A stretch of 64,000 nucleotides of DNA, from the NCBI GenBank assembly GCA_027620445.1, contig JAQBYG010000003.1, positions 175 through 64,174 on the forward strand, read 5' to 3'. Made by a program: the position numbers and the translations under genes. Positions within the stretch are counted from its first letter, which is position 1. Every line of letters starts with the position of its first letter. Shown here piece after piece: positions 2,511 to 60,288 of this stretch. The stretch comes from a bacterium (lineage in GTDB: Bacteria > Patescibacteriota > Microgenomatia > UBA1400 > PJMF01). Under the pieces are notes generated by a model. It searched no databases, was not told the origin of the DNA, and saw nothing but the letters and a program-made list of their open reading frames with translations.

Positions 2511-3674
2511 CTAGGCTACCCAATACCCTTGTATAAACAGCAGTGCGTTGTAGATCAGTAAGCTTACACTGAGCAGTATGAGTATAACCCGAGCAAGTGT
2601 ATTTTTCAGTAAAAGTTGTGACCAAATATAAAAGAGTGGAAATGCGACCAGAATGTAGCGCGGCATACTAGACAGGGTTCCCGTTAGGGTTGGGAGCACA
2701 AGGACTCCAAGTGTAAATATGAGCCAAGAGGTCGGTACTTTGAGTTGCTGACGTTTCCAGTACCCATACGCGAGTGTTGTAAATGCAAGCACAGTTAACA
2801 AAAGCTCTTGGGCGTAGGTGAGCCAAATTCGACTAATTGGTACGGTTGCTAAGATTTTTACTCCTCTCCACAAAGTCTGCGGTAGGAGGATGAGCGATTC
2901 TTGCCTCCCGGATCCAAACTCAGACTGGACGTGGAAAAAATAGAGAGGGTCTGAGAACTCGTACTGTAAAAAAGACATGAACGCTACCAGTCCAGCTAAA
3001 GAGAGAGAAAGTAAAGCAATAATAGGCAGTTTTTTTCTGACTGCTGCAATCAAGTGACGAGACTGTGTGGGAGATAGTAACTGCCAGATCAATGCCAGAA
3101 ACACAAATACCCCAACCAATCTTGTCGAGATTGCCAAACCAGTTGCAAGTGTAGCCAAAGGCCAGTGTTTTTTTTCTGCAGCTAGAAATGCTCCGAGGAC
3201 AAAGCACAGGAAGAATGCTTCTGAGTACACCGCGCCAAAGTAAAAAGAGGTTGGGAATAGCAAGAGCAGTGCCAGGCTAAACCAGCTGACTTTACTTGAA
3301 GCTCGTTGCTTCACCAACGCATAGAAAAAATACAGCGCAAAAGTAAGCGCAATAAAATTCAGTAACAGTGACACAATTGTGTGTGAAAATCCAAACGAAA
3401 CAAACTGAATAAAGAGTGGAAAGAGCGGAAAGAAGGCTTGGATCAAACCAGTGCCGATGTAGCCTTTTTCCATGATGGTCAGGTAATGCACGCCGTCGAA
3501 GTTTGCCCAGGAGTACATCCATTGTGGTAGGCCAAGCTTGGCGAGGAGATCATACGCATAGGGAAAGCTTGGGTCGTAGGGTATAACTCGTGGCGCCAGG
3601 ATGCTGAGGGCAAACAAGCCGATTCTCCATCCCAAAACTAATACTATAATTCTTCTAAGTAGAGATTTATTCAC
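2511..3674 (-). CDS. Polytopic membrane protein, PIG-V-like GT-C mannosyltransferase family (tentative)
   Basis: 387 aa with many hydrophobic segments. N-terminal WANFDGVHYLTIMEKGY resembles the W-x-WDG-x-HY-L motif of PIG-V/GT76-type mannosyltransferases. Confidence 0.45.
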   Translation of the reverse strand: MNKSLLRRIIVLVLGWRIGLFALSILAPRVIPYDPSFPYAYDLLAKLGLPQWMYSWANFDGVHYLTIMEKGYIGTGLIQAFFPLFPLFIQFVSFGFSHTIVSLLLNFIALTFALYFFYALVKQRASSKVSWFSLALLLLFPTSFYFGAVYSEAFFLCFVLGAFLAAEKKHWPLATLATGLAISTRLVGVFVFLALIWQLLSPTQSRHLIAAVRKKLPIIALLSLSLAGLVAFMSFLQYEFSDPLYFFHVQSEFGSGRQESLILLPQTLWRGVKILATVPISRIWLTYAQELLLTVLAFTTLAYGYWKRQQLKVPTSWLIFTLGVLVLPTLTGTLSSMPRYILVAFPLFYIWSQLLLKNTLARVILILLSVSLLIYNALLFIQGYWVA

Positions 3675-34626: not shown

Positions 34627-36281
34627 TCTTGCCGCTCCCTATGCAACATAATGCCAAATAAAACGAGTATGCTCACAACTGAAATGCCGTTTGCCCAAGT
34701 GCGAATTGGTGTCGGCAAAAACAGTACGCCCACAAGGTGCGAACCTGTTGGCACAGTCACTTGTAACAAGCCTTCTGCTGATTTTTGGTGACCAACTCGC
34801 TTTCCGTCAATTTCAACCTGCCAGCCAGGAAAATCTGCAATTGCAAATGTAAGCTCAGTTTCATCAGTGAATGTCGCAAAGACGAGTTTTTCATGCACTC
34901 GATTCACGAGCTCACTTTCCTGAGGAAGAGTTGGGTCAATAACTACTTTCGAAAAATTAACTGGCACTGCTGTCTCGTCAAAACTTTCTGGCATGAAATC
35001 AGGCAAAATGCCACTCATACTCTCTGCTATCTGAGACTCATCAGCAGAGTACAGTTGCTCTGGATCAGCAAGATATGACTCTGGCCTAAAGTATCGCGCA
35101 TTACTGAGCAAAAGAATCACAAGGAAACCGGTTATAACAATCTTGAGTACCCTACCACGCAGAGTCATAACTCCACTTGTGATAGCTAGTGATAAGAAAA
35201 TAATGGCAACAGAAAGAAATCTCCAGGGAAACTGGACGAATCTGAGGACTTCTACCTGATCCCAGATAAACAACGTTTTTTCTGTCGTCATTAGTAAAGC
35301 AACACAGCCCAACAGAAATGAAAAAACAGCCAGCATGAGCTGATAGCTACGTACATTTTTCTTCTTGCGAATAGTTTGGAAAACTGCGGCTGCTACCAAA
35401 ACAAATCCAGTCAACATGCCGTAACCGAGAAAAAATGAGATCTCATCGACCGGACCCCAGACAGAACCTCCATATCCCCAGTAGGGAGTGATAAGTTGTC
35501 GCAGGTACAGAAAGTGCAGATGAAAATCAAAGTAGTGTGTCAAAATTCTGCCTTCCACTTGAGTGAGTGATTTTTCAAGAAAGGCTGGGAGTATATAGTA
35601 GGCAGCCATTCCAACCCCAAGCAACGTGCTCCCGAGTGTCGTGATCGCTTGTTTCCATGCTTTTTTGTACACGATGAATACCAGTGCAAACAAAGTGAAA
35701 AAAGGCAAAAAGATCATCGTGATCAGGTTATGACTCAATAACAAGCCAGCAGTGCTCAGAGCCAACACGACCCAACCATGCCGATGTTTCTGCAACACCA
35801 GTACAAGCCCCAGAAGCATCCAGACACTAGCCGCAATGCCCCAGGCTTCACTAATCGCACCCCTAATAAAAACATTAACAGCGCGATATGGTGCAAGCGT
35901 GATGAGGGCAGAAAGCAAGAGTGCTCCAATTGATCCAAACAATCGCTTGCCAAGATAGTACGCTGCGACAATGGTTAAGAGGTTCGCAAGAAAAAATACG
36001 CTTGAAACCGAAAAAAGTATCGAGCCAAAAAGCCAAAAAACAAACGCCCCAAAGTAGTACGGCAAGGGAGCATAAAAAAGATAGAGTGGCATGCCATACC
36101 CATATCCAAAGTTCTGGCTCCACTGTGGAGGAATGTGACCATCCGTAACTGCTCGAGTCATCTCGGCAATTCGCGCACCATGCGTATAATCATGCACACG
36201 AAAAAAGCCAGAATGAAAAAGCGGCCAACTACTGGCGACCAAAATAAGCAGAAGCGCGTTAGCGACGAGTAATCTTCTCAT
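34623..36281 (-). CDS. Large polytopic membrane protein, paralog family A
   Basis: HDYTHGARIAEMTRAVTDGHIPPQWSQNFGYGYGMPLYLFYAPLPYY signature. ATGA overlap with the flippase gene. Confidence 0.5.
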   Translation of the reverse strand: MRRLLVANALLLILVASSWPLFHSGFFRVHDYTHGARIAEMTRAVTDGHIPPQWSQNFGYGYGMPLYLFYAPLPYYFGAFVFWLFGSILFSVSSVFFLANLLTIVAAYYLGKRLFGSIGALLLSALITLAPYRAVNVFIRGAISEAWGIAASVWMLLGLVLVLQKHRHGWVVLALSTAGLLLSHNLITMIFLPFFTLFALVFIVYKKAWKQAITTLGSTLLGVGMAAYYILPAFLEKSLTQVEGRILTHYFDFHLHFLYLRQLITPYWGYGGSVWGPVDEISFFLGYGMLTGFVLVAAAVFQTIRKKKNVRSYQLMLAVFSFLLGCVALLMTTEKTLFIWDQVEVLRFVQFPWRFLSVAIIFLSLAITSGVMTLRGRVLKIVITGFLVILLLSNARYFRPESYLADPEQLYSADESQIAESMSGILPDFMPESFDETAVPVNFSKVVIDPTLPQESELVNRVHEKLVFATFTDETELTFAIADFPGWQVEIDGKRVGHQKSAEGLLQVTVPTGSHLVGVLFLPTPIRTWANGISVVSILVLFGIMLHRERQE

Positions 36282-37413
36282 GTATGATGAGACTCATTGT
36301 ACACGCAAGCGTATGAAATCAGCCACTCAGCACACTGCAACTACGGAAACTGAATTTTCCGCTACAACCGTTATCATCAAGTCTACTGCTCTAGCAATAG
36401 CGTTCGTAACTGGTTCATTTCTTGTTCTTATCCTGATAGCAAGCATTTTCGGCTACCAATACCTGCAGAAAATTGGCAGTGAAAGCAACAAATCTCCCCA
36501 AGAATTACTGCAAATAGCAAAGTCAGCAAACGAAGTTACACCAAGAGAAAGCAATCCTGTGTTTCTTATCTTGGGCACTGATTCATTAGCAACTAGGGGC
36601 GAAGTGCCACCTCTCACCGACATACTGCTGCTTGCCTCTCTAGATCTGAAATCCGGCGCAGTACACCTTCTCCCACTCCCTAGAGATCTTTGGAACGAAA
36701 ACTATAAGACCAAAATCAATGCGCTACTTGCGTATGGCAGTGACCGTTCTCCAGATTCTCCCGAGCAATTCCCAAAACAGGTCATCGAGGAAATGACAAA
36801 TGTTCCAATTGATTTTACTGTAGTACTTGCGATGGACACCTTAGCTGAGCTTGTAGACACTCTCGGCGGTGTTGCTGTGTCTATTCCGACCAGCTTTGTC
36901 GACACAGAGTTTCCTAATCCAGATGTCGACATATCTACAGAGAGAGATCCAAAAAAACTCTATAAAACCGTTTCCTTTTCAAAAGGAACTGAAACAATGT
37001 CTGGAGAACGGTTGCTAGAGTTTGTTCGTAGTCGACACAGTGAGTCCGAAGAAGGTACTGACTTGGCTCGCAACCAACGCCAACAAATAGCTTTTGCTGC
37101 TATTCTGGACGCAGCAACAGCTGAATCTGTAATCAAAAATCCTAGTAGAATCGGCAAACTCTTCTCCTTCTATGAGAATCACTTCCGCAGCGCTCTACCG
37201 ATCAACGATATGGCAGCTATCGGCAAGGCTGTACTAGAAAATTCAGTCTCAGGAGTTACGATAGAGTCACACTCACTCTCCATTCAATCACGAACAGAGG
37301 CTGGTGTGTTGGTCAACCCAGACATCAGAACTACCAAAAATATCTGGTTGTATCAGATCACGGACGACAAACTTTTTCGAGAAGAAGTTGGTCGAGCCTT
37401 ACAAAAGCTATGA
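36280..37413 (+). CDS. LytR-CpsA-Psr (LCP) family glycopolymer-peptidoglycan ligase
   Basis: N-terminal TM anchor, then VFLILGTDS...LTDILLLASLDLKSGAVHLLPLPRD, which is characteristic of the LCP catalytic domain. The true start may be the Met at 36313 (MKSATQ). The track start at 36280 overlaps the divergent start codon in a CATG palindrome. Confidence 0.65.
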   Translation: MYDETHCTRKRMKSATQHTATTETEFSATTVIIKSTALAIAFVTGSFLVLILIASIFGYQYLQKIGSESNKSPQELLQIAKSANEVTPRESNPVFLILGTDSLATRGEVPPLTDILLLASLDLKSGAVHLLPLPRDLWNENYKTKINALLAYGSDRSPDSPEQFPKQVIEEMTNVPIDFTVVLAMDTLAELVDTLGGVAVSIPTSFVDTEFPNPDVDISTERDPKKLYKTVSFSKGTETMSGERLLEFVRSRHSESEEGTDLARNQRQQIAFAAILDAATAESVIKNPSRIGKLFSFYENHFRSALPINDMAAIGKAVLENSVSGVTIESHSLSIQSRTEAGVLVNPDIRTTKNIWLYQITDDKLFREEVGRALQKL

Positions 37414-40721: not shown

Positions 40722-41801
40722 ATGCCGGTAACCCAAAATTCTTCAAGTCTGTCGAGAGCAACCATGATTGGTCGTGCAGTGGTCAAGTGGGGAGTCATTT
40801 CACTCGTCGCTATGATCGTGGGCCGAGTACTTATAAGCTCATTGATTGCGTTTTGGAAAGCCATGAATCCTCCCAAGCCAGAGCCGCCAACAGTTGGATT
40901 TGGGGTATTACCAAGTATTGTGTTCGACAAATCACTTTCTAAATCACCAACCAGTTACTCTCTCGAGTTGCCAACCGGTGAATTTCCCGAGTTTCCAGAT
41001 CGGGCAAAAGTGTTCCTGTACTCTCAGGCCGCGCCAAGTTTGCTCGCAGACCAAGAAGCAAAAGAAATTGCAAATGCGTATGACTTTGTCTTTGCACCTG
41101 AAGTGGTGAGTGACAATGTGTACCGCTGGACCAAAACACTGCCGCTGAGTAGCATTTTTGAAATGGATGTAAATACTCACCAGTTCTCCTTGAGCACAGA
41201 CTATATGAATCGGCCAGAGCTGCTCGCGGATCCCAAGTTACCTGATGGGTTTCAGGCGGTGCAAACGGTTAAACAGTTCTTGAGTAGCGGAGGATTACTA
41301 CCTGAAGATGTCGCGACAAGTTCTGGCGACATTGCGTACCAGAAGTTGATTGGCAGAGAGCTAAAAACTGCCGTCTCCGCCTCTGATGCTGAGTTCATTC
41401 AAGTTGATATCAATCGATCACCTGTCGACGAGAAATATCCAATGTACACACCTCATAAAGGACGAGGTATCGTCCATGCCATCATCGCTGGCGGACTCTC
41501 AGGAGATAACTCTATTGTAGAACTACAGTACAACTACTTCCCGACCTTTTCATCACTTGTTCATACCTATCCACTCAGATCTGTTCAGTCAGCATGGGAA
41601 ATTTTGCAGGCAGGGGAAGGCTACGTGGCGCCACAATTTACAGGACAAAAAGCTGCCATTCGCAAAGTGGGCCTTGGCTACTTTGATGACTTTTCCTTTC
41701 AACCATATCTGCAGCCAATCTATGTCTTTGAAGGAGATGATGACTTTATTGGCTATGTTCCTGCGGTAAGTGCAGAGTTTACTTTAAGGCAACAACAATG
41801 A
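40722..41801 (+). CDS. Hypothetical membrane-anchored extracytoplasmic protein
   Basis: N-terminal TM segment (VISLVAMIVGRVLISSLIAFW), then a roughly 300-aa domain with no recognisable motif. Confidence 0.4.
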   Translation: MPVTQNSSSLSRATMIGRAVVKWGVISLVAMIVGRVLISSLIAFWKAMNPPKPEPPTVGFGVLPSIVFDKSLSKSPTSYSLELPTGEFPEFPDRAKVFLYSQAAPSLLADQEAKEIANAYDFVFAPEVVSDNVYRWTKTLPLSSIFEMDVNTHQFSLSTDYMNRPELLADPKLPDGFQAVQTVKQFLSSGGLLPEDVATSSGDIAYQKLIGRELKTAVSASDAEFIQVDINRSPVDEKYPMYTPHKGRGIVHAIIAGGLSGDNSIVELQYNYFPTFSSLVHTYPLRSVQSAWEILQAGEGYVAPQFTGQKAAIRKVGLGYFDDFSFQPYLQPIYVFEGDDDFIGYVPAVSAEFTLRQQQ

Positions 41802-43246: not shown

Positions 43247-43981
43247 ATGCCGCCCCTCCCTGCCACCAGCTTATACTCACTCGAACTACTCGATACTCTG
43301 CTACAAAAAAAGCAAGCTGAGTTCGCTGTGACTTTTCCTGAGAAGCCGGTAACACAGCAAATAAACAATCCACAACCTACGCCTGAACCTGAAAGAGATG
43401 AGATCTTCGCAAAGTTAGAAACAGCAGCGTCCTCTTTGAGCCAATTATCCGAAAAGGAACTGCTCTATCTGGAACAACAAGTTTCTGATTTACTCGGGTT
43501 TGAGGTCACGAGTTCTCTTGATGACCAGCGCTTGACTCACACGTTTGGCAAGATTCAGGCGCTTGCGGAGTTTGTGCTTCAGCCACATCAAAACACGGTT
43601 TCAACACCAGCTGTTCGAGGAGCAAACATGCAAGCTACTCGACCGACACTCGGATGGGCTAAAAAGCCCCCCGAGAACGGCGAAAAGCACTTCCTTCTCG
43701 CCAATCACTTATTATTGCTTGAAGACTGGCATCTTAAGTACGCCCACTACAAAAACTGGTATAAGTGGCGCAAGCTGCTTGTTTTGAATCCATTTAATCG
43801 CGTCGCTGTAATAGTCGAGTTGGCCTCATTCACCCTACCAAATCCCATGCAGTATCAATTCGGCGGTTCACCTGATGTCATCCGTGCTTCCCAAGCCTGG
43901 TCACCAGAAGCGCAGGGACACGTTTGTGTGTTTTTTATACCAGAAGAAATTGCCATCAAGCCTGGATTACACAAAATATGA
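43247..43981 (+). CDS. Hypothetical protein
   Basis: 244 aa. Low-complexity Q/P-rich N-terminus, then a Trp/His-rich C-terminal half (HFLLANHLLLLEDWHLKYAHYKNWYKW) that I cannot place in a family. Confidence 0.35.
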   Translation: MPPLPATSLYSLELLDTLLQKKQAEFAVTFPEKPVTQQINNPQPTPEPERDEIFAKLETAASSLSQLSEKELLYLEQQVSDLLGFEVTSSLDDQRLTHTFGKIQALAEFVLQPHQNTVSTPAVRGANMQATRPTLGWAKKPPENGEKHFLLANHLLLLEDWHLKYAHYKNWYKWRKLLVLNPFNRVAVIVELASFTLPNPMQYQFGGSPDVIRASQAWSPEAQGHVCVFFIPEEIAIKPGLHKI

Positions 43982-51748: not shown

Positions 51749-51776
51749 GGACAGTAGCTTCAGCACACTACTGTCC
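51749..51776. terminator. Perfect 9-bp inverted repeat, GGACAGTAG - 10-nt loop - CTACTGTCC, at the convergent gene junction
   Basis: Read directly in the sequence. It overlaps the last five codons and the stop of the racemase gene. No T-run flanks it on either strand, so it is a hairpin rather than a canonical intrinsic terminator. Confidence 0.35.
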
Positions 51777-52482
51777 TCTTGAGAACTTGTGCAAACTCCA
51801 ACGCTCGAGCAATGTGAATATCGATTGTGTCCAAGAAGGCGCACTCGGCACGCATCTTATTTCTTAACAGTGGTAGCTCGGTACACCCGAGAATAATTGC
51901 TTCAGCTCCTAATCGCACGAGGTCTCTGCTAATCTCATCTAAAATGCCCGCAGAACGCTGCAGAACTGCACCCTTAACTAGTTCTTCATAGATAATGGTG
52001 TGAACCATCGTCCCAGCTGCTTCGTTTGGCACAACAACTTTCAAACCATGTGCTTCCAAACACTCTCGGTAAAAGGTGCCATACATTGTGTATGTTGTGC
52101 CGAGGAGTCCAACACACCGCAAACCTTTGCTAATGGCATCTAAAGCAACCGACTCGGGCAATGAGAGTATTGGAATCGATACTGACTGCCTGAGTGTCTC
52201 GACGGTTTTATTTGTGGTGTTTGAGCAAATGAGTGCGCACTCTGCACCACCCTTTTCAAGTCGTTGTAGTTCCTGCACCAGAAAGTCAGCCTCCAAATCG
52301 CTCCTTCCAGATTTTTGATACGCGAGTATCTCAGAGAAGTTGATGCTGGAGATCAGTAATCGAGCACTGGCATACCCGCCTTGGGCTAAGTACACTTGCT
52401 CATTAAATCGTCTGTAGTACTCCAATGTCGATGTCCAGCTGACGCCCCCAACCAAGCCAATCAGTTTACTTCGTTCTTGCAT
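51760..52482 (-). CDS. PLP-independent Asp/Glu/hydantoin-family racemase (aspartate racemase-like)
   Basis: GLVGGVSWTSTLEYY, CSNTTN and GCTELPLL correspond to the two catalytic-cysteine regions of Asp/Glu racemases. 240 aa. Confidence 0.65.
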   Translation of the reverse strand: MQERSKLIGLVGGVSWTSTLEYYRRFNEQVYLAQGGYASARLLISSINFSEILAYQKSGRSDLEADFLVQELQRLEKGGAECALICSNTTNKTVETLRQSVSIPILSLPESVALDAISKGLRCVGLLGTTYTMYGTFYRECLEAHGLKVVVPNEAAGTMVHTIIYEELVKGAVLQRSAGILDEISRDLVRLGAEAIILGCTELPLLRNKMRAECAFLDTIDIHIARALEFAQVLKRTVVC

Positions 52483-53561
52483 TAATCAATGTGGTAACGA
52501 AACTCTGTTGATTTTTCACCCTCACCCAGTTGGTTTTTATACGAGAGTAGCACTACATCCTCAATGTTCTTCCCCGCAGCTCGCAACATCTTTGGAAACA
52601 AACTATGCTCCATCATGCCTGGCAGCGGATTTATCTCTAGAAAATATATAGCTCCTTCCGGATTCACACGGAAATCAAATCTTGCGAAGTGTCGCACACC
52701 CACATGCTGGAACAGCTGCTCAGAGAGCCTGCGAACGCGCGTTTCAACAAGCGATTCTGATTCTGGGTCAATCACCCACTCTTCGTTTTTGCCCAAAGTA
52801 TGCTTCTCAGCATGACCAAAGAACTGCTGTTGAGTGATTACTTTGATCACCGGCAATGCCGAGACCATACCGTTTTCTTCAAGACAACCACACGAGTACT
52901 CATCTCCAGGAATAAATTCTTGTAGTAAGGCTGCCGAATCATACGATAGTATTTGAGCAATCAGATCAGTGGCCTTTTGGTTGTCATCCCCGATGGTATG
53001 TAGCTCAGTCATGATACTGGCTCCGAGAGAACTGGGTTTAATAACCACTTTCTCTCCAGATTTCCAAAACGCGAGGGCTTTAGCAATCTCAGATTCAGAT
53101 CGAACAACCACCGAACGTGGAATCTGCGCCTCAGTCCCAAGACCAGCCACGAATGTGTTGCAGTGCAACTTACTCATGGCCAAAGAAGCGGAAAGAACTG
53201 AGCCAAATGAACCCTTGATGTCTAAAAATGCCGCAGCTCCTTGAATACAACCGTCTTCGCCGTGCTGACCGTGAAGCAAAGAGAATACATAAATAGCATC
53301 CTCAGCTAATTGCGAAAGCAAGGTTGACCGTGAAATGCGCTCTCCTGTTCGTGAGTAGGATTCAGGGGAGTTGTTCGGCAAAAATGGATTGAGCAACACC
53401 CCGCCGTCACGAGCGATATAGAAGATCTGGATGTCCTGAAACTGTTGTTGGATTTTTTTCTGCGTGAGCCTCGAGAGTACGTGCTCAAACGACTTTTTTG
53501 ACGCGTCGTGTTCCGATGAAACACCTCCAAATACTATGGCCAATGATTGTTTTTTGTTCAT
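52482..53561 (-). CDS. D-alanine--D-alanine ligase family (ATP-grasp) enzyme, specificity uncertain
   Basis: LAIVFGGVSSEHDAS, LLHGQHGEDGCIQG and a C-terminal FLEINPLPGM are the Ddl family signatures. 359 aa. Confidence 0.7.
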   Translation of the reverse strand: MNKKQSLAIVFGGVSSEHDASKKSFEHVLSRLTQKKIQQQFQDIQIFYIARDGGVLLNPFLPNNSPESYSRTGERISRSTLLSQLAEDAIYVFSLLHGQHGEDGCIQGAAAFLDIKGSFGSVLSASLAMSKLHCNTFVAGLGTEAQIPRSVVVRSESEIAKALAFWKSGEKVVIKPSSLGASIMTELHTIGDDNQKATDLIAQILSYDSAALLQEFIPGDEYSCGCLEENGMVSALPVIKVITQQQFFGHAEKHTLGKNEEWVIDPESESLVETRVRRLSEQLFQHVGVRHFARFDFRVNPEGAIYFLEINPLPGMMEHSLFPKMLRAAGKNIEDVVLLSYKNQLGEGEKSTEFRYHID

Positions 53562-54334
53562 CTCACACCTCCTATACTTTTACTTTTTGGAATTCCGTAG
53601 AGAGCAGTTTGATTAGTTTGTAACCCATACGCTTGCGTGCCCAACTGAAAATGCCACCACTCGCTAGCCAAACCGGTAAACATACCAACACTTCTCATCG
53701 CGTCGTGTAGAATTCTCCTATTTCTTCTAGCCAAAAAATCCTGTTCAGTTACACAATTTTCTTCGTTCTCAAAATACTGCGTGTGTGCTTTTTCGGAAAA
53801 ATCATCAAAATCAGTGCCCATCCATAACTCTTGGCCAAATTCGTCCAAGATCGTGACGTCTACCGCCCCTCCAGTCAGATGATGGGATGGCGCGCTTGGA
53901 TCAGCTGATGGCAAGGCGACAAATTGTTGGCAAAGACGTTCTAGCTGCTGGGAGTCGAGTGCGCCGTACTGAGCACAAAGTCGAGCGTAATAACGATCGT
54001 AAATTTCCTTTTGCAACGACACCGGCCTCCACGCATCCCAAATTACCAAGCGATACCCCGACGGAAGTGCTTCTGCAGCGAGTAATAATCGCTCAAAAAC
54101 ACCAGCGCGAATTTCTTGCTCGAAGCTCGCTTCTCTAAAACCTCTAATAAAATACTGCGGAGAAATCGCCAATCGCCTCCCACGATACTTTTGAAGTGCT
54201 ACCAGTGGCTCACCGTTGTCTTCAATTTTTACCGATTGCCACCCTTCGATTGAAGTAATTCCTGGTATGGGATGTTTTCCCGCATCCAAAACATCGAGTT
54301 CTGCGTCTGGAAAGTATTCGTACGTTTCGATCAT
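53558..54334 (-). CDS. VanX-type D-Ala-D-Ala dipeptidase (peptidase M15D)
   Basis: SHHLTGGAVDVT (S-x-H-x2-G-x-A-x-D zinc motif), RLVIWDAWRP and EWWHFQ are diagnostic for VanX/DdpX. ATGA overlap with the ligase gene. Confidence 0.7.
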   Translation of the reverse strand: MIETYEYFPDAELDVLDAGKHPIPGITSIEGWQSVKIEDNGEPLVALQKYRGRRLAISPQYFIRGFREASFEQEIRAGVFERLLLAAEALPSGYRLVIWDAWRPVSLQKEIYDRYYARLCAQYGALDSQQLERLCQQFVALPSADPSAPSHHLTGGAVDVTILDEFGQELWMGTDFDDFSEKAHTQYFENEENCVTEQDFLARRNRRILHDAMRSVGMFTGLASEWWHFQLGTQAYGLQTNQTALYGIPKSKSIGGVR

Positions 54335-54418
54335 GCTGGCTCCTTTACTATGAAAAGAGCTTACGCAACAAAGTTAGGGAAATAAATGAATCAACTTAAT
54401 TCATTGCTATGACAATTG

Positions 54419-54489
54419 ATCCCGAGCTAGGATTCGAACCTAGGAAAACAGGTCCAGAACCTGTTGTGATGCCGCTTCACTACTCGGGA
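54419..54489 (-). tRNA. tRNA with anticodon CTG (Gln)
   Basis: Manual fold of TCCCGAGTAGTGAAGCGGCATCACAACAGGTTCTGGACCTGTTTTCCTAGGTTCGAATCCTAGCTCGGGAT. It has a 7-bp acceptor stem, GTGA/TCAC D-stem, ACAGG/CCTGT anticodon stem with loop TTCTGGA (U33, anticodon CTG), and CTAGG/CCTAG T-stem with a TTCGAAT loop. CCA is not encoded. Confidence 0.8.
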
Positions 54490-54514: not shown

Positions 54515-55195
54515 ATGATTAAACACATCATTGCACTCGTACAATCAGATGTTGTGCAAACGAAGTTTCGAATAAACGAGATGCTAGCGGCCACTGCCTG
54601 TCACACGACAACTGACATCACATCTGCGTATAAATTATTCGAGAAGAATAAGATTGATTTGCTTATTGTAGAGATTCCAGGATATTCTAACGATTTACAC
54701 GATCTCGTTTGCTATGTGCATGAAATCTCCTTTGCCACAAAAATTCTTATTGTTTTCTTGCAATCAAAAACGGTGCATCATGAAATCTATCTCAACTCCG
54801 GAGCCGACCTCTGCCTGCAACAACCATTCTCGAAACGCTGTCTAGAGCTCTACTGCAATAAACTGCTGAGTGTAAACAAATTCAAAGCAGGCTCACTTCT
54901 CTACCTCGGTTCGGCAGCATTGCAGCCAGAAACAGCTCATCTGTATATCGGCTCACACCATCAGCAACTAAGAAAGCGTGAAGCAGAAATTCTGGAGTTC
55001 TTTTTTCGAAATAAAAATCAAATCATCACGCGAGAGCGGTTGATTGATAGCATCTGGGGATTTACCGAAGAAATACCCTCATATACTTCGATCGATGTCT
55101 ATGTTCGTCGCTTGAGAATGCAACTTAAGAACTCAGGAGCGATACTTCAAACAGTGCGAGGAACAGGGTATGTTGCTAGAGAAGTTGTAAATTAG
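54515..55195 (+). CDS. OmpR/PhoB-family winged-helix transcriptional regulator with degenerate (phospho-acceptor-less) receiver domain
   Basis: C-terminal LRKREAEILEFFFRNKNQIITRERLIDSIWG...YVRRLRMQL...VRGTGY is a trans_reg_C wHTH. In the receiver the acidic pair is QSD, the phospho-Asp position reads LLIVEIPG (Glu), and the conserved Lys region reads GADLCLQQPF (Gln). Confidence 0.6.
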   Translation: MIKHIIALVQSDVVQTKFRINEMLAATACHTTTDITSAYKLFEKNKIDLLIVEIPGYSNDLHDLVCYVHEISFATKILIVFLQSKTVHHEIYLNSGADLCLQQPFSKRCLELYCNKLLSVNKFKAGSLLYLGSAALQPETAHLYIGSHHQQLRKREAEILEFFFRNKNQIITRERLIDSIWGFTEEIPSYTSIDVYVRRLRMQLKNSGAILQTVRGTGYVAREVVN

Positions 55196-56762
55196 TGATA
55201 TCCCAAACCTGCAAACATGGTGCATTGTCCGGCCGGCAAAACTCAGCTACCAACACAAGATCTTCTGTCTGCATCTGCATGCGATGGCTATTTACCACCA
55301 ACCAAACTGTTTCGTAGGCTGAGGCTTGTTTCAGAAACGCATCAGGAATACCTCGTACTGGCTGTCCTATCCCTTGCACCATAATGTTTGTGACATCTCG
55401 CCTGTGTAAGTACATCAGAATGCCATCTGGTAACGTGCCAAAAAACCCTTCCGTTGCCACCGCAATCGTCCCTTGTTTCGCCTGTGCATTAATCAATGCC
55501 ACCGCTTCCTGAATACCATGGCCAGAGGACCACTCAGATAGATACTGCGTCACGTCTGCAGAAACAAATGGGGTAGCATTTGCGTTGGTGAGAGATGGGT
55601 ATATGAATGCGACAGATCTTACTAGAGAGTTTGCCAGAAGTAGTACCGCAACTACGGCAAAGACTGCTCGTTTTCGCAGTGATAACTCACCATCTTTGGC
55701 TCGACGAAACAACTCGCTGAGGGCAATACTTGCTGCGAGGGTAAGAGGGATAATAGCAGGCATAAAATATCTGGGATACACAACTTTGCCCAACACAGCA
55801 ATCGGGCCAATAAAACTCAATGCTGCCAACAGCAGCACAAAAATAGCTCTTCTCTGTTTTCGCATTAAAAGTCCGATCAAAGATACAATTGTGGCTGTGG
55901 GCGTGAGATACAGCAAGAAATACCTGCCGTATGTAGGAAAGCTGATAATCGTATCTCTCCATTTTCCCTCTAAGACTTCTTGCCATGGGTAAAGAAAATC
56001 ACTGCCACGACTAAACAATTGCGAAAATACGGGTTGCGTTTTTAACACTAGAAAAAATACGAGTCCTACAGCAATTACTGACCCGGACTGCAGCAGTAGT
56101 AACAACCGCTCTGTATACGATTTATTCTTTGGCAAAAAAGCAAAGAACACGAACGTCGGCGTAAACAAAATCGCCGGTACTTTGGTCCAAAGCGCTAAAC
56201 CAAACAGAATGCCACTCAAGAGCAGCCAGGGCTCTCTCAGAGCAACACGAAATACTTTTTTGAGTTGCAACAAATCTCTATTCTGGAATGTGAATGAGCG
56301 CGTCACAACTTCCAAGTAACTTGCAAGACTGAGAGTAAGAAACAAAGTAAGAGTTCCGTCAATTAATGCCATACGATGATGAAAAAACCAGAATGGCAGG
56401 ATCGTCACAAACAAAGCACCGAGAACCTTGGCAAGTTTCGTACCACCTAGTAAGCGAATGCACCAAACATTGGCCCCAATCTGACCAACGCCTACCAATA
56501 CGGAAACAATCCGGGCTGCGTACAGCTGATCAGAAAAGACGAATTGGAAAGGCACGAGAAGCCACATAAACAACGGTGTTTTGCCATCATTCATTGGAAA
56601 AAATAAATACTCTCTCCAATCGTCAATGATCAGTTGCGCCCAACGAATATATATTGACTCATCTGCAAACACCGGTAAGTTAAGCAGGCCCCACAGATGG
56701 GTCACAAGATACACACCAATGATCGCAGTAAAAATTAATTTAACCATCGACTGTTTTCCCAA
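55176..56762 (-). CDS. GT-C membrane glycosyltransferase, ArnT/PMT_2-like (divergent family 1 member)
   Basis: FADESIYIRWAQLI...MNDGKTPLFMW in the first loop, at least 11 TM segments, and a C-terminal extracytoplasmic domain. Confidence 0.55.
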   Translation of the reverse strand: MGKQSMVKLIFTAIIGVYLVTHLWGLLNLPVFADESIYIRWAQLIIDDWREYLFFPMNDGKTPLFMWLLVPFQFVFSDQLYAARIVSVLVGVGQIGANVWCIRLLGGTKLAKVLGALFVTILPFWFFHHRMALIDGTLTLFLTLSLASYLEVVTRSFTFQNRDLLQLKKVFRVALREPWLLLSGILFGLALWTKVPAILFTPTFVFFAFLPKNKSYTERLLLLLQSGSVIAVGLVFFLVLKTQPVFSQLFSRGSDFLYPWQEVLEGKWRDTIISFPTYGRYFLLYLTPTATIVSLIGLLMRKQRRAIFVLLLAALSFIGPIAVLGKVVYPRYFMPAIIPLTLAASIALSELFRRAKDGELSLRKRAVFAVVAVLLLANSLVRSVAFIYPSLTNANATPFVSADVTQYLSEWSSGHGIQEAVALINAQAKQGTIAVATEGFFGTLPDGILMYLHRRDVTNIMVQGIGQPVRGIPDAFLKQASAYETVWLVVNSHRMQMQTEDLVLVAEFCRPDNAPCLQVWDITNLQLL

Positions 56763-58011
56763 CCAAAATACTTCCGTGCTCTGTTTTGGGTCTAACTATA
56801 GACCATTGCCAAAGTAACCACATGGCAGGAATCCCTAAGGAAATGTACTTCTGCCATTGCACGGTATCTGCCTCATACCCACCCGCATACAGCCACGGTA
56901 CATAGCGCAAGAGTGCAGCGATTGAACACACGAGCCAAAATACTCTCCACTTTGCTGAACCAATCAACGGCAACCAGACGAGAGACCAAGTCAGGTACCA
57001 CGGCAAGTACTGCTGCGACTGGTTTGTAAGAAGTGGCAGGAGCAGCAACGCAGCGGCTGAGTATGGCAGTACACGAAGTATGCGTTCCCAAATACCTTGG
57101 GTTAGCAGTTGCAAAAATCGCTTGGGAAGCCTGAGTCTAGTGAAGCTTCCTTCCTCAAACCGCTCGAGCGCAAGTATGGTGAGCCAAATGGGAAGCAGTA
57201 CTATAGTGGCAAATTTGATCGAAACAGAAAAAGCTAACAACAGCAATGACCCAAACACTCTCGATCTGAATGCAAAACGTTTTCGTGCCAGCAGAAAACT
57301 AAAGCTAATCAGCGCTGGCGCAAGCATCCACAAGTCATTGTGACTGTTCGCCACAATCTCTATCAACACGAGTGGGTTAAGAAAAAAGATTGCAGCATCG
57401 CTGAGCGTCAAGCGCTTGCCCATCAGCCCTGCAAGCTGTTTGAGTCCGACATACACAAGAACAAGACTAGCAACAGAAAACACTCGAAACAGCAACCACG
57501 TCCAGGTAAATTTGCCAAAGCCGAGCATAAATGGGATCAAAGAGAGACCAGTCCAACCAAAGCCATATGGCGCGGGAGTGTGCGTATTGTGCATAAATCG
57601 AGTCCAGTCATCACTGAACTCAAGTGCAGTCTGCGCATGCGGATTGGCTTGATAAATCAACACCATTTTGGCATTGAACAAGTAATTAAAAACGTCATGC
57701 GAGAGCGCATTGTAGGAAAAAAGAAGCGGGGAAATAATAAGAGTAAACCACAGTATGGTTCGGGAAAGCGTGAGGTGAGTAATTCCTCTCAACCAACGCT
57801 GCATTTGTAACCCCAACCAAAACATACAAGCAATCAGCAAGACATACACTGTGGTATAGAAAGTTACAAAGCCGCGAGCAATTGACCAAATCCAGTTCTG
57901 AAAAATCCAGTAGGGTTCCCAAGATGTTAATACTAAATTTGGATCAGCCAAGCCATAGCTCCAAATGGCGTAGCTCAGCAAACAAACCCAGAGTGAAACA
58001 ACATATCGCAT
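56740..58011 (-). CDS. Polytopic membrane protein, unknown family (GT-C candidate)
   Basis: HDVFNYLFNAKMVLIYQANPHAQTALEFSDDW loop. About 11 hydrophobic segments. Start taken at the Met at 58011 (MRYVVSLW), which abuts the upstream GT2 stop. Confidence 0.4.
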   Translation of the reverse strand: MRYVVSLWVCLLSYAIWSYGLADPNLVLTSWEPYWIFQNWIWSIARGFVTFYTTVYVLLIACMFWLGLQMQRWLRGITHLTLSRTILWFTLIISPLLFSYNALSHDVFNYLFNAKMVLIYQANPHAQTALEFSDDWTRFMHNTHTPAPYGFGWTGLSLIPFMLGFGKFTWTWLLFRVFSVASLVLVYVGLKQLAGLMGKRLTLSDAAIFFLNPLVLIEIVANSHNDLWMLAPALISFSFLLARKRFAFRSRVFGSLLLLAFSVSIKFATIVLLPIWLTILALERFEEGSFTRLRLPKRFLQLLTQGIWERILRVLPYSAAALLLLPLLTNQSQQYLPWYLTWSLVWLPLIGSAKWRVFWLVCSIAALLRYVPWLYAGGYEADTVQWQKYISLGIPAMWLLWQWSIVRPKTEHGSILVGKTVDG

Positions 58012-58012
58012 A

Positions 58013-58777
58013 CTACTCGTACCTGCCCCGCAGTGCGGCGAAGCGAATGCGCACGATATCAAAAAACATTCGCAGTGAATCTTTGACTGGACTCACTCTA
58101 TTTGTTTCGCGGTGTTCCCAATGGATTGGTACTTCAGCAATCTTGTACTTCATTTTGCGAGCAATGTACAACAGCTCGACATCAAATGCCCCCGTGTACG
58201 CATCCCGGCGTTCTGCCAAATTACCGTAGACCGACAATCGAGAAAACAAATCATTCGTTGCTCGATCAGAAAACAATTTAAAACCACACTGAGTGTCGTA
58301 GATACCAGGCACAGCCAAAATCTGCACAACGAGATTAAACACACGACCCATCAAATGCCGATAAAATGGCTCGTCATCACGCTGAGCACCGGCAATCTCT
58401 CTCGATCCAATTACAACGTCGTATTGATCCCTGGCAATCGCGAGCAGTTTCTCAACCTCACTGAGTGGAGTGGATTGATCAAAATCGGTAAATAAGCGCC
58501 AAGAACCGGTGGCGGCCAACATACCAGAGCTCACAGTTGCAGCTTTGCCCGCATGTTTGTTTTCGAGCACACGAACCCCTTGATTTTTTGAGGCAAATGC
58601 ATGTAGTAACTCTACTGTTCCATCACTAGATCCGTCATCACTCAGAATAACTTCCCAGGTATAGTCTTGTGCTTGCAGATAGGTAAGAACTGTATCAAGT
58701 ACCCCTGAAGCAAAGTTTTTCTGCTCGTTATATGACGGGATAATGACAGAGAGAAAGGGCTGCATAGTACTTATCAT
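58013..58777 (-). CDS. GT2 Dpm1/GtrB-like polyprenyl-phosphate sugar synthase
   Basis: LSVIIPSYNEQKNF...ILSDDGSSDGT...TDFDQS motifs. ATGA overlap with the upstream GT-C gene. Confidence 0.75.
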   Translation of the reverse strand: MISTMQPFLSVIIPSYNEQKNFASGVLDTVLTYLQAQDYTWEVILSDDGSSDGTVELLHAFASKNQGVRVLENKHAGKAATVSSGMLAATGSWRLFTDFDQSTPLSEVEKLLAIARDQYDVVIGSREIAGAQRDDEPFYRHLMGRVFNLVVQILAVPGIYDTQCGFKLFSDRATNDLFSRLSVYGNLAERRDAYTGAFDVELLYIARKMKYKIAEVPIHWEHRETNRVSPVKDSLRMFFDIVRIRFAALRGRYE

Positions 58778-60288
58778 ACACTTGAGGAATCTGTACGCAA
58801 CACAAACAGCTCCACTCCATTTGGTAACTCAATAATCTGACTGGGAGTTTTGTTGGGAAATACCACTAATTCATAGATCGGCAACGAAAGTGGGTCAGGT
58901 GCCACGCGCTCTTCGTTGATAATTATCAGTGTCTCAGCGGTGTGATGTAGTTCTGGTTCCAGCGGTTTTTTCTCAGGATTACTGCTCAAGAAATACCTGT
59001 AGTTCGTGCCATAAATGTCTCTAGTGGCAGAGAGAAGCATGATCTCATACTTCTCCCCTGGCTCAACGAGCTTGTGAATCTCGCTCGCAGTTTCAGCGAT
59101 CAAACTGATATTAAGACCGGCCGTTGCAAACGAGTACCTTGACCAATTACAAATCAGATAAGCCAACACTGTGGCGAGCACAACGAGCTTTGCAAAGACA
59201 CGCTTGCTCTCCCAGAGTTTGCCAAGTGCTATCCCGAAGACAACACAAGCAAAAGGGATAACAAATAAAATATAGTGATCAAATACTGAACTCGTGTAGA
59301 AACTAAGGCCAATAATCGCTGTACCAAGAAACAGCGCCAACAACTGCAAAGCTGCGCGCTGTCTTCCTCGCAATCGGTATAGTAGCCAGGCTACTACTAC
59401 AAGTACACCCCTAAGCAACCAAGTATTGAGCACACGATTTTCTCCGATCTGGGTCTCAAAAAAGATGTGCAGTGATCTCCCGTGTGTTTCGGATAAAATG
59501 CGCTGGGCACGTACCCACCAAGGTGCAGACTCGTTGAAACTATCGCTTTGGAATAACTCAGCCGCTCCCTGAATATTCAGACCCTCGTGCTTGATGTCAA
59601 ATAAAACCAGCGGCAGCATGCTCATCAATACAATACCAATAGCCACTCCAGACCAAAGAAAAAACGGCTTTCTCGCAGTTCTTTTGCGCCAGGCACGCCT
59701 AACTGCCAATATCCAAACAATTCCAACAACAGGTAGTACAAGCAAGGTGATGTAATGCAGTTGCAGTAAGATTGCAGTTGTGAGCGCTATCCATACCAGT
59801 TGTCGAGGAGAATTGTCTTGCCAAAACTTGAGCAGTGCAAAAAATAAGAGAATGCTAAAAATTGGCTCGATGTTTGGATTCCAACTAAAGCGTGACTGAC
59901 TGACAACAGAGCTAGAAAATGCAAAAAAAATACTGCTCAACAAAGCGACTTTTTCGCCAAACACTGCTTTCAACTCTCTATACAACAGAATAATTGCTGC
60001 AATACTCACGACGGCTACAGCCACCGCCGGACCAAGCGGACTTGGGTAACTCAAAAATAGCCAGGGGAGCATAAAATAGTAGTAAAACGGTCCGAGATAT
60101 AAGTTGCCTACACTCGTCACCGGACCAATAAACACCAAATCCCTCTCTAAAAACATCTTCGAGACCACAAGCGCGTCTCTGCCCTGATCGCCAAGAAACA
60201 TGAGGGTGCCAGACAGATTATAAAATCGGACAAAAATTGCGGCCAATAACAGCGCCACAAACAGCAACTTTGCAGGCGATATTCGCAT
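58774..60288 (-). CDS. Polytopic membrane protein, GT-C-like, family 3 (paralog of 10344)
   Basis: GDQGRDALVVSKMFLERDLVFIGPVTSVGNLYLGPFYYYFM, with about 12 TM segments. Confidence 0.5.
   Translation of the reverse strand: MRISPAKLLFVALLLAAIFVRFYNLSGTLMFLGDQGRDALVVSKMFLERDLVFIGPVTSVGNLYLGPFYYYFMLPWLFLSYPSPLGPAVAVAVVSIAAIILLYRELKAVFGEKVALLSSIFFAFSSSVVSQSRFSWNPNIEPIFSILLFFALLKFWQDNSPRQLVWIALTTAILLQLHYITLLVLPVVGIVWILAVRRAWRKRTARKPFFLWSGVAIGIVLMSMLPLVLFDIKHEGLNIQGAAELFQSDSFNESAPWWVRAQRILSETHGRSLHIFFETQIGENRVLNTWLLRGVLVVVAWLLYRLRGRQRAALQLLALFLGTAIIGLSFYTSSVFDHYILFVIPFACVVFGIALGKLWESKRVFAKLVVLATVLAYLICNWSRYSFATAGLNISLIAETASEIHKLVEPGEKYEIMLLSATRDIYGTNYRYFLSSNPEKKPLEPELHHTAETLIIINEERVAPDPLSLPIYELVVFPNKTPSQIIELPNGVELFVLRTDSSSV

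Follow-up and report, generated by a model that had tools for sequence, protein, structure and literature searches.

Ligases of the Ddl family set the end of the peptidoglycan stem peptide, and hence what glycopeptide antibiotics and transpeptidases meet. To our knowledge, only three stem-peptide outcomes of this family have been characterised, namely D-Ala, D-Lac, and D-Ser. Here we describe an operon from a bacterium of a Paceibacteria lineage, located in a 64,000-nucleotide stretch of contig JAQBYG010000003.1 (the window). The operon encodes a dipeptidase-like protein of the VanX family (M15D), a non-canonical Ddl-family ATP-grasp ligase, and a racemase independent of pyridoxal phosphate (PLP). 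The three genes probably constitute one translationally coupled operon for a D-amino-acid dipeptide other than plain D-Ala-D-Ala, and the most likely destination of that dipeptide is the cell wall. What is new is an uncharacterised clade of Ddl ligases with a dedicated racemase partner, joined here to a VanX-type enzyme. The identity of the clade's product matters either as new stem-peptide chemistry, with what may be an environmental reservoir of resistance logic, or as a new family of D-amino-acid dipeptide metabolites. The operon also bears on how the ultra-small Paceibacteria build their walls.

The locus resembles the VanC, VanE, and VanG cassettes in combining a Ddl-family ligase altered at its second site, a racemase for a D-substrate, an M15 D,D-peptidase, and a nearby OmpR-type regulator. 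The components are nevertheless different. The window ligase scores outside those families, and the dipeptidase is nearer VanX than VanXY. The racemase is soluble and has the PLP-independent Asp_Glu_race fold, whereas VanT is a membrane-bound, PLP-dependent serine racemase. The receiver of the regulator is degenerate and no kinase adjoins it, whereas van cassettes use VanR/VanS, and the host belongs to a Paceibacteria lineage. The operon logic is that of a VanC/VanG cassette, but neither the ligase clade nor the racemase family is the same. With the VanA, VanB, and VanD cassettes the locus shares a ligase and a VanX-type dipeptidase in one operon, but it has no VanH-type dehydrogenase. The omega loop of its ligase has the DdlB length and keeps Lys215, whereas the VanA loop is longer. 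A histidine in this loop recalls His244 of VanA, to which it may be equivalent.

Other described systems share fewer features. DdlA and DdlB (EC 6.3.2.4) have the same fold and the same ATP, Mg, and acyl-phosphate residues as the window ligase, but the window gene is not among mur/dcw genes, and the neighbours conserved around it are different ones. DdpX of E. coli, the best NCBIfam match of the window dipeptidase, is another M15D dipeptidase found outside a resistance setting; the ddp operon, however, has a dipeptide ABC transporter and neither a ligase nor a racemase. In Enterococcus faecium, Aslfm and Racfm are reportedly a D-aspartate ligase and an aspartate racemase that serve the peptidoglycan cross-bridge. 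There, an ATP-grasp ligase and an Asp_Glu_race-fold racemase likewise bring a non-Ala D-amino acid into peptidoglycan precursors, but Aslfm is said to belong to a different ATP-grasp family, to acylate the Lys side chain of the finished precursor rather than form a dipeptide, and to have no VanX partner. Genes for an alanine/aspartate racemase and a Ddl-like protein of unknown function were noted in passing beside vanRSY in rare Actinobacteria and suggested as an alternative wall-remodelling route (Andreo-Vidal et al. 2021, PMC8698665). Those loci have VanY as the partner in place of VanX. The same study notes that murF often co-localises with van genes (PMC8698665). Our literature searches found no characterised member of the ligase clade, and only PMC8698665 mentions a similar, unstudied arrangement; papers on a pseudomurein ATP-grasp enzyme and on a beta-lactone peptide had no bearing on it.

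The dipeptidase gene comes first in the operon (53558-54334, minus strand, 258 residues) and is followed on the same strand by the ligase gene (52482-53561, 359 residues) and the gene for the racemase, which is of the YgeA/RacX branch (51760-52482, 240 residues). An earlier note, made from the letters of this DNA alone, had described three minus-strand genes with overlaps of 4 and 1 nucleotides, and its coordinates proved exact. The dipeptidase/ligase junction is an ATGA-type 4-nucleotide overlap, the ligase/racemase junction is a 1-nucleotide overlap, and a Shine-Dalgarno sequence (AAGGAG) lies 7 nucleotides 5' of the dipeptidase ATG. The architecture of ligase, dipeptidase, and racemase proposed in that note agrees with the Pfam assignments and, for the ligase and the dipeptidase, with the AlphaFold2 folds.

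The order regulator, tRNA-Gln, dipeptidase, ligase, racemase is kept in five distinct Paceibacteria loci (L009, L011, L014, L017, and, with no tRNA-Gln detected, L016), whose ligases are 54-71% identical to that of the window. The closest relatives are labelled Candidatus Pacebacteria/Paceibacterota. Because the gene order is kept in all five loci, the operon is real and inherited rather than a chance adjacency. Candidate-phylum genomes are gene-dense and overlapping genes are common in them, which would suit an alternative in which three functionally unrelated genes are simply packed side by side in a compact genome. We consider this highly improbable given the retained order at that level of ligase divergence, the adjacency of ligase and racemase in four other phyla or classes, and the significant enrichment of partner genes over canonical ddl loci described below.

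The window ligase is a Ddl by fold. It matches both Pfam domains of the family (Dala_Dala_lig_N, PF01820, 55.2 bits; Dala_Dala_lig_C, PF07478, 99.3 bits). Its AlphaFold2 model has a predicted local distance difference test score (pLDDT) of 91.7, and the best matches in the PDB are all Ddl or Van ligases, with template modelling (TM) scores of 0.7-0.85. Judged by its sequence, it is nevertheless not a canonical Ddl. It is 20-27% identical to housekeeping DdlA/DdlB and falls under the curated Ddl cut-offs (TIGR01205, 173.7 against 245.65 bits; NF002378, 170.1 against 243). It also falls under every Van ligase cut-off, including those of VanG (131.1 against 495), D_ala_D_ser (119.6 against 520), and VanC (103 against 650). 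Scores against the D-Ala-D-Lac models range from 70 to 96 bits where the cut-offs are 550-775 (D_ala_D_lac, 95.6 against 550; VanA, 74.4 against 775).

The difference from canonical enzymes is concentrated at the second substrate site. We aligned the ligase with E. coli DdlB and VanA, having checked both references against PDB entries 2dln and 1e4e. In DdlB numbering, residues E15, K97, K144, K215, R255, D257, E270, N272, and S281 are conserved in the ligase and in its clade. In the numbering of the window ligase, E17, K175, K253, R294, D296, E309, N311, and S320 correspond to DdlB E15, K144, K215, R255, D257, E270, N272, and S281. In the omega loop, Tyr216 of DdlB is replaced by His254, Tyr212 by His250, and Asp211 by Gly249. 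Elsewhere Ser150 is replaced by Ala, Gly153 by Met, Glu180 by Gln, and Val18 by Ala. The Glu15-Ser150-Tyr216 triad, on which the choice of D-Ala at site 2 depends, is broken, with Ala at position 150 and His at position 216. The loop has the DdlB length and an identical spacing from Phe209 to Lys215, so the equivalence of Tyr216 and His254 does not depend on gap placement. Among 43 canonical Ddl control loci from the same GTDB scan, Tyr216 is present in 42, and Gly153 and Glu180 are kept. The earlier note had named a canonical DdlB omega loop as one part of what would speak against its proposal; the window enzyme has instead changes at positions 216, 212, 211, 150, 153, and 180.

The window ligase belongs to a rare yet phylogenetically wide clade of Ddl proteins, with a rewritten specificity loop and partners of its own, of which no member appears to have been studied. 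A clade profile separates members, at 224 bits or more, from canonical Ddls, at 163 bits or less. When 1.84 billion representative proteins were searched, about 95-100 clusters at 50% identity scored like clade members, roughly half of them carrying the signature FFGHxEKH. The clade was monophyletic in all 60 of 60 neighbour-joining bootstraps against DdlB, VanA, and 29 canonical Ddls. Its hosts include Paceibacteria, Burkholderia, Pseudomonas, Xenorhabdus, Legionella, Mesorhizobium, Streptomyces, and others, and many of the loci adjoin insertion sequence (IS) elements or integrases or sit on plasmids. Since Burkholderia, Legionella, Streptomyces, and Pseudomonas have a standard ddl, the clade ligase is an accessory second copy in these genera.

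Genomic neighbours of the clade were collected from context look-ups and a GTDB scan, of which the best 80 loci were used, and all loci were then searched with hidden Markov models (HMMs) built from the partner proteins. We counted partners within 4 kb of 43 distinct clade loci and of 43 canonical ddl loci. A racemase or PALP enzyme occurs at 27 clade loci and 2 canonical loci (p = 7e-9). Because of this enrichment, the clade ligase is functionally tied to the supplier of an unusual amino acid. Four further partners are also enriched: a C39-like peptidase (15 of 43 against 1 of 43, p = 1.4e-4), an L-amino-acid ligase (11 against 0, p = 4.7e-4), a VanX-like protein (9 against 0, p = 2.5e-3), and PanD (7 against 0, p = 0.012).

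The composition of the loci differs between hosts. Paceibacteria have the VanX-like gene, the ligase, and the racemase, with or without a C39-like peptidase. In L011, L016, and L017 this peptidase, which is C39_2-like and a cysteine peptidase, is added as a fourth gene. Saccharimonadales-like metagenome-assembled genomes (MAGs) have the ligase and the C39-like peptidase, together with a VanX-like gene in L018. In Streptomyces canus and an Arthrobacter, the ligase is accompanied by a PALP enzyme of the Ser/Thr dehydratase or serine-racemase type, a C39-like peptidase, and a VanX-like protein. Other Streptomyces have the ligase and a PALP enzyme in the vicinity of L-amino-acid ligases and a C39-like peptidase. 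The Mesorhizobium ligase stands alone beside IS elements. Burkholderia, Xenorhabdus, and Pseudomonas encode the ligase, the racemase, a membrane protein of about 10 transmembrane helices, and the C39-like peptidase, while Legionella has PanD, the ligase, the racemase, a major facilitator superfamily (MFS) transporter, and an L-amino-acid ligase. In Thermoactinomyces the ligase lies in a natural-product-like cluster with a monooxygenase, a PALP enzyme, a Cys/Cys racemase, a methyltransferase, a second ATP-grasp enzyme, an AsnB-like protein, and a 2-oxoglutarate (2OG) oxygenase. The PALP-racemase-ligase core of that cluster is shared with Amycolatopsis, a verrucomicrobial MAG, and a Methanobrevibacter MAG.

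Several of these loci suggest that the clade might instead make a free D-amino-acid dipeptide, acting as a specialised metabolite, antimetabolite, or signal rather than as a peptidoglycan component. The VanX-like protein would then serve turnover or self-protection, and the additional MurF and VanX genes found elsewhere would be resistance copies rather than pathway enzymes. The Legionella cluster with PanD, the MFS transporter, and the L-amino-acid ligase fits such a role, as do the tailoring-rich Thermoactinomyces cluster, the loci with the transmembrane protein and C39-like peptidase in Burkholderia, Xenorhabdus, and Pseudomonas, and the many loci beside IS elements or integrases or on plasmids. 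The Paceibacteria operon itself, however, has no exporter, second ligase, or tailoring enzyme. It is also inherited vertically, in a reduced genome, with housekeeping and envelope genes around it, and its co-translated cytoplasmic dipeptidase would destroy a free product. We regard a free dipeptide, the main rival explanation, as fairly unlikely for this operon.

A connection with wall-precursor synthesis is seen most directly in S. canus. Its cassette, which contains a His216-type ligase, ends with a genuine MurF (TIGR01143, 386 bits against a cut-off of 288.6), giving the order ligase, PALP enzyme, C39-like peptidase, VanX-like protein, MurF. It is the only place where MurF is linked to the ligase clade. 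The link to peptidoglycan proposed in the earlier note thus stands in part: the S. canus order supports it, and the presence of the clade in exporter-containing and natural-product-like clusters speaks against it.

The racemase matches the Pfam family Asp_Glu_race (PF01177, 136.7 bits) and exceeds the cut-off of the TIGR00035 'amino acid racemase' model (178.5 against 93.1). It falls below the equivalog cut-offs for YgeA (155.8 against 417), MurI (TIGR00067, 45.7 against 146.65), and also CuyB. Its best PDB matches by sequence are 3ojc (E = 2.9e-43) and EcL-DER, 5hqt (E = 6e-38). The putative catalytic pair is Ser87, within the motif C86-S87-N-T-T, and Cys200, with Ser87 at the position of Thr83 in EcL-DER and Cys82 in PhAspR. 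The two-cysteine pair of aspartate and glutamate racemases is therefore not present, the first residue being Ser87 and the second Cys200.

Racemases with this CSNTT motif accompany the ligase across several lineages. All 15 full-length ligase-adjacent racemases of the CSNTT kind, a set that includes the window protein and others from Paceibacteria, Burkholderia, Xenorhabdus, Pseudomonas, Mesorhizobium, and Legionella, share the motifs GGVSWxSTxEYY, ICSNTT, and LGCTELPL. In a database search with the window racemase, the best 18 matches were all of the CSNTT type, while more distant ones were mostly of the CTNTM (YgeA) type, from Bacillus, Flavobacterium, and Pantoea. Pairwise divergence of the ligases correlates with that of the racemases (rho = 0.59). 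The earlier note had left room for an unrelated housekeeping racemase, which the ICSNTT racemases lying directly beside clade ligases in Burkholderia, Xenorhabdus, Pseudomonas, Mesorhizobium, and Legionella argue against. We dropped raw identity as a test of orthology, because the 34-42% identity of the window racemase to the proteobacterial partner racemases is barely above its 33% identity to E. coli YgeA. The proposed subfamily is defined by the CSNTT and GGVSW motifs and by the ranking of matches. At L097 and L099, CSNTT racemases are found without a clade ligase.

Possible substrates of the racemase include D-Asp, D-Ser, D-Ala, and others. The YgeA/RacX racemases characterised so far either have broad specificity or act on homoserine or lysine, often favouring the L-to-D direction (PMC12838360). 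Because the window racemase lies in this broad-specificity branch, the family name 'Asp/Glu' does not identify its substrate, and the suggestion of D-Asp or D-Glu in the earlier note, which came from that name, loses its support. Ligases of the His/His type pair with either a CSNTT racemase or a serine-racemase-like PALP enzyme, and this pairing hints at a D-amino acid that both types of supplier could make, such as D-Ser or D-Asp. At L097, a CSNTT racemase 46% identical to that of the window adjoins a MurF-like gene, a canonical Tyr216 ligase of the DdlA type, and a two-component system. This context ties the CSNTT type of racemase to wall-precursor synthesis and also keeps D-Ala on the list of substrates. 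In a marine metagenome (L099, 2008-12228), we observed a CSNTT racemase gene between an AsnB-like amidotransferase gene and several GT4 glycosyltransferase genes with a polysaccharide deacetylase gene, which suggests D-amino-acid decoration of a glycan.

The dipeptidase matches Peptidase_M15 (PF01427, 80.8 bits against a cut-off of 27). The VanX-type motifs SHHLTGGAVD and EWWH, which had been recognised in the earlier note, are present as S150-H151-H152-L-T-G155-G156-A157-V158-D159 and E225-W-W-H228 and fall on invariant columns of the family. In an alignment of 40 homologues, R103, H152, D159, E225, and H228 are invariant, so that the His/Asp/His zinc ligands, the catalytic Glu, and the transition-state Arg are all in place. 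The protein scores below the NCBIfam equivalog cut-offs for DdpX (71.1 against 176) and VanX (36.9 against 320), and its only PDB match by sequence is VanX, 1r44 (E = 2.3e-7). The AlphaFold2 model (pLDDT 90.4) also has VanX 1r44 as its best structural match (E = 2.5e-9), followed by VanY, VanXYc, and LdcB. The TM-scores to VanX are 0.53/0.66, and the N-terminal region is longer than that of VanX. On these comparisons of sequence and structure, the enzyme is placed in a divergent subfamily of the VanX Pfam family.

Homologues of the dipeptidase at 38-46% identity occur in two informative contexts, L096 and L094. L096 (2924-12056) is a mobile island with transposases and an integrase fragment at its borders. 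Its cargo includes two MurA-like proteins of the EPSP_synthase family, a 417-residue membrane protein without known function, an alpha/beta hydrolase, a VanX-like protein 43% identical to the window dipeptidase, a long Tyr216 Ddl, and a MurF-like ligase with an N-terminal membrane region. The island resembles a transferable cassette for peptidoglycan precursors. At L094, the Brevibacillus homologue lies in a catabolic-looking operon. The VanX-like subfamily is thus repeatedly, but not exclusively, linked to genes for peptidoglycan precursors.

Alternatively, the operon could be a divergent unit that serves the housekeeping supply or the salvage of ordinary D-Ala-D-Ala. The ligase would then be the cell's Ddl, the racemase would supply D-Ala or turn scavenged D-Ala into L-Ala, and the dipeptidase would cleave imported or surplus D-Ala-D-Ala in the manner of DdpX. 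Paceibacteria are reduced scavengers, the 64-kb window holds no other ddl, and the catabolic-looking Brevibacillus operon would fit a salvage role. D-Ala is the obvious product at L097, where the CSNTT racemase lies beside the canonical DdlA-type ligase and MurF, and Ala is among the many amino acids that racemases of the YgeA/RacX type can use (PMC12838360). Against a salvage unit, the clade has replaced the whole omega-loop motif whose Tyr216 is all but universal among the canonical controls, and it is an accessory second copy in four genera with a ddl of their own. Making and hydrolysing the same dipeptide from one coupled mRNA would moreover be futile. We judge the salvage explanation to be improbable.

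The explanation we favour, tentatively, is that the operon is a van-like cassette that writes an intrinsic stem-peptide terminus other than D-Ala-D-Ala. In such a cassette, the YgeA/RacX-type racemase would use Ser87 and Cys200 to turn an L-amino acid into its D form. The ligase would phosphorylate the carboxylate of a first D-amino acid as Ddl does; this is probably D-Ala, since residues of the Glu15/His63/Ser281 type are kept. It would then couple a second substrate chosen by the rewritten omega loop, in which His250...Lys253-His254 replaces Tyr212...Lys215-Tyr216. The VanX-family enzyme, whose zinc-site residues are intact, would cleave the unwanted D,D-dipeptide, which is presumably D-Ala-D-Ala, and so leave the alternative dipeptide predominant. 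The D-Ala-D-Ala removed could come from a housekeeping Ddl or arise as a side product of the window ligase. MurF would load the product onto the UDP-N-acetylmuramic acid (UDP-MurNAc) tripeptide, giving a non-standard stem-peptide terminus intrinsic to the Paceibacteria lineage. Expression of the operon would be controlled by the divergent, phosphorylation-independent OmpR-type protein.

Several observations weigh against this van-like cassette. No MurF or other mur gene is present in the 64-kb window. A local BLAST search among the open reading frames (ORFs) of the same 64 kb found no second ddl, a gene that would be needed if the VanX-type enzyme is to have a competing pool of D-Ala-D-Ala. 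The C39-like peptidase, a frequent companion of the clade, is absent from the 64-kb window by search with the partner HMM. Clade ligases also occur with exporters, L-amino-acid ligases, PanD, and tailoring enzymes in clusters that resemble pathways for small-peptide metabolites, and the Brevibacillus homologue of the dipeptidase lies in its catabolic-looking context. Simple scans found no sigma-70-like promoter on the minus strand and no convincing terminator, a result that is uninformative in a candidate-phylum bacterium.

A broader and more speculative proposal concerns the clade as a whole. The His212/His216 ligase, its co-inherited Ser/Cys racemase, and, ancestrally, the C39-like peptidase might form a hitherto unrecognised, horizontally spread module that makes a new D-Ala-D-X or D-X dipeptide. 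Where a VanX-type dipeptidase is added, as in Paceibacteria, Saccharimonadia-like bacteria, and some Actinobacteria, the module could yield a stem-peptide terminus not yet described and insensitivity to agents that bind D-Ala-D-Ala. We hold this proposal to be rather unlikely as it stands; if true, it would add a fourth type of terminus to D-Ala, D-Lac, and D-Ser.

The candidate regulator of the operon is encoded on the plus strand, divergently from it, at 54515-55195. It is an OmpR/PhoB-type winged-helix protein (Trans_reg_C, 64.9 bits) with a degenerate receiver. The N-terminal half scores 15.5 bits against Response_reg, below the cut-off of 30.2, and by eye a Glu seemingly replaces the phospho-acceptor Asp (in 'LLIVEIPG'). 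No histidine kinase adjoins it among the neighbouring genes of the window. The protein is probably a phosphorylation-independent regulator, and the position of its gene is constant in all the Paceibacteria relatives. Between regulator and operon lies a minus-strand gene for tRNA-Gln(CTG) (54418-54489), identified with ARAGORN and Rfam, 83 nucleotides upstream of the dipeptidase start and 25 nucleotides from the regulator gene. Its position is the same in L009, L011, L014, and L017, and it was not detected in L016. The tRNA may be co-transcribed with the three operon genes.

Second only to the racemase, the C39_2-like cysteine peptidase recurs as a partner of the clade. It is a cytoplasmic protein of about 200 residues with the motifs PYFSQWES, CGMACLKM, GGHLVLV, and HNPSG, and we found it in Paceibacteria, Saccharimonadales-like MAGs, Burkholderia, Pseudomonas, Xenorhabdus, Streptomyces, and Arthrobacter. 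Examples lie at 11778-12410 in L011, at about 11760-12407 in L016 and L017, at 10008-10616 in L005, and at 10707-11321 in L001. The peptidase could play a VanY-like role, and its gene is lost from the sub-lineage of the window. Two other ideas about the partner proteins were rejected. A 279-residue Burkholderia partner, considered as a cryptic VanX analogue, is a membrane protein of about 10 transmembrane helices and probably a transporter. Anti-phage defence, raised by defence-like neighbours in S. canus and L012, found no support in a PADLOC scan with all partners, which gave zero matches.

Further clade loci are of separate interest. In Legionella bozemanae (L004, 7503-12266; also L026, L027, and L031), PanD is encoded with a clade ligase of an Arg212/Leu216 variant, a CSNTT racemase, an MFS transporter, and an L-amino-acid ligase, with an integrase adjoining. 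This gene content suggests that a tripeptide with beta-alanine and a D-amino acid is made and exported. In Fulvivirga (L047) and a Mesorhizobium (L039), too, PanD is encoded beside a clade ligase. A Bacillota MAG (L046, 168-16157) has a His216-type ligase among three giant ORFs of 1032-1474 residues that match the MurF profile, together with an octopine-dehydrogenase-family protein and a TupA-like ATP-grasp enzyme, and appears to be an unusual locus for polymer or peptide synthesis.

The window is dominated by envelope genes, which encode PMT/GT-C-like membrane glycosyltransferases, GT2 enzymes, nucleotide-sugar enzymes, and a LytR-CpsA-Psr protein, followed by housekeeping genes. The presence of LytR-CpsA-Psr in the envelope region implies a peptidoglycan wall. 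At least 12 paralogous membrane proteins of 490-630 residues, with pairwise identities of 22-35%, are encoded between 3667 and 36281 (also at 55176-58062 and 58774-60288), and those scanned gave weak PMT/PMT_2 (GT-C) matches. Their genes are interleaved with genes for GT2 enzymes, nucleotide-sugar epimerases and dehydratases, and the LytR-CpsA-Psr protein (36280-37413), forming an envelope-glycosylation island that is very large for a reduced genome. Five ORFs of 200-440 residues had no Pfam match at E <= 0.001, at 40722-41801 and 43247-43981 on the plus strand and at 2511-3674, 282-884, and 56740-58062 on the minus strand. The product of 56740-58062 is a multi-pass membrane protein, and its orthologue at 5534-6796 in L009 carries PF26314 (MptA_B_family).

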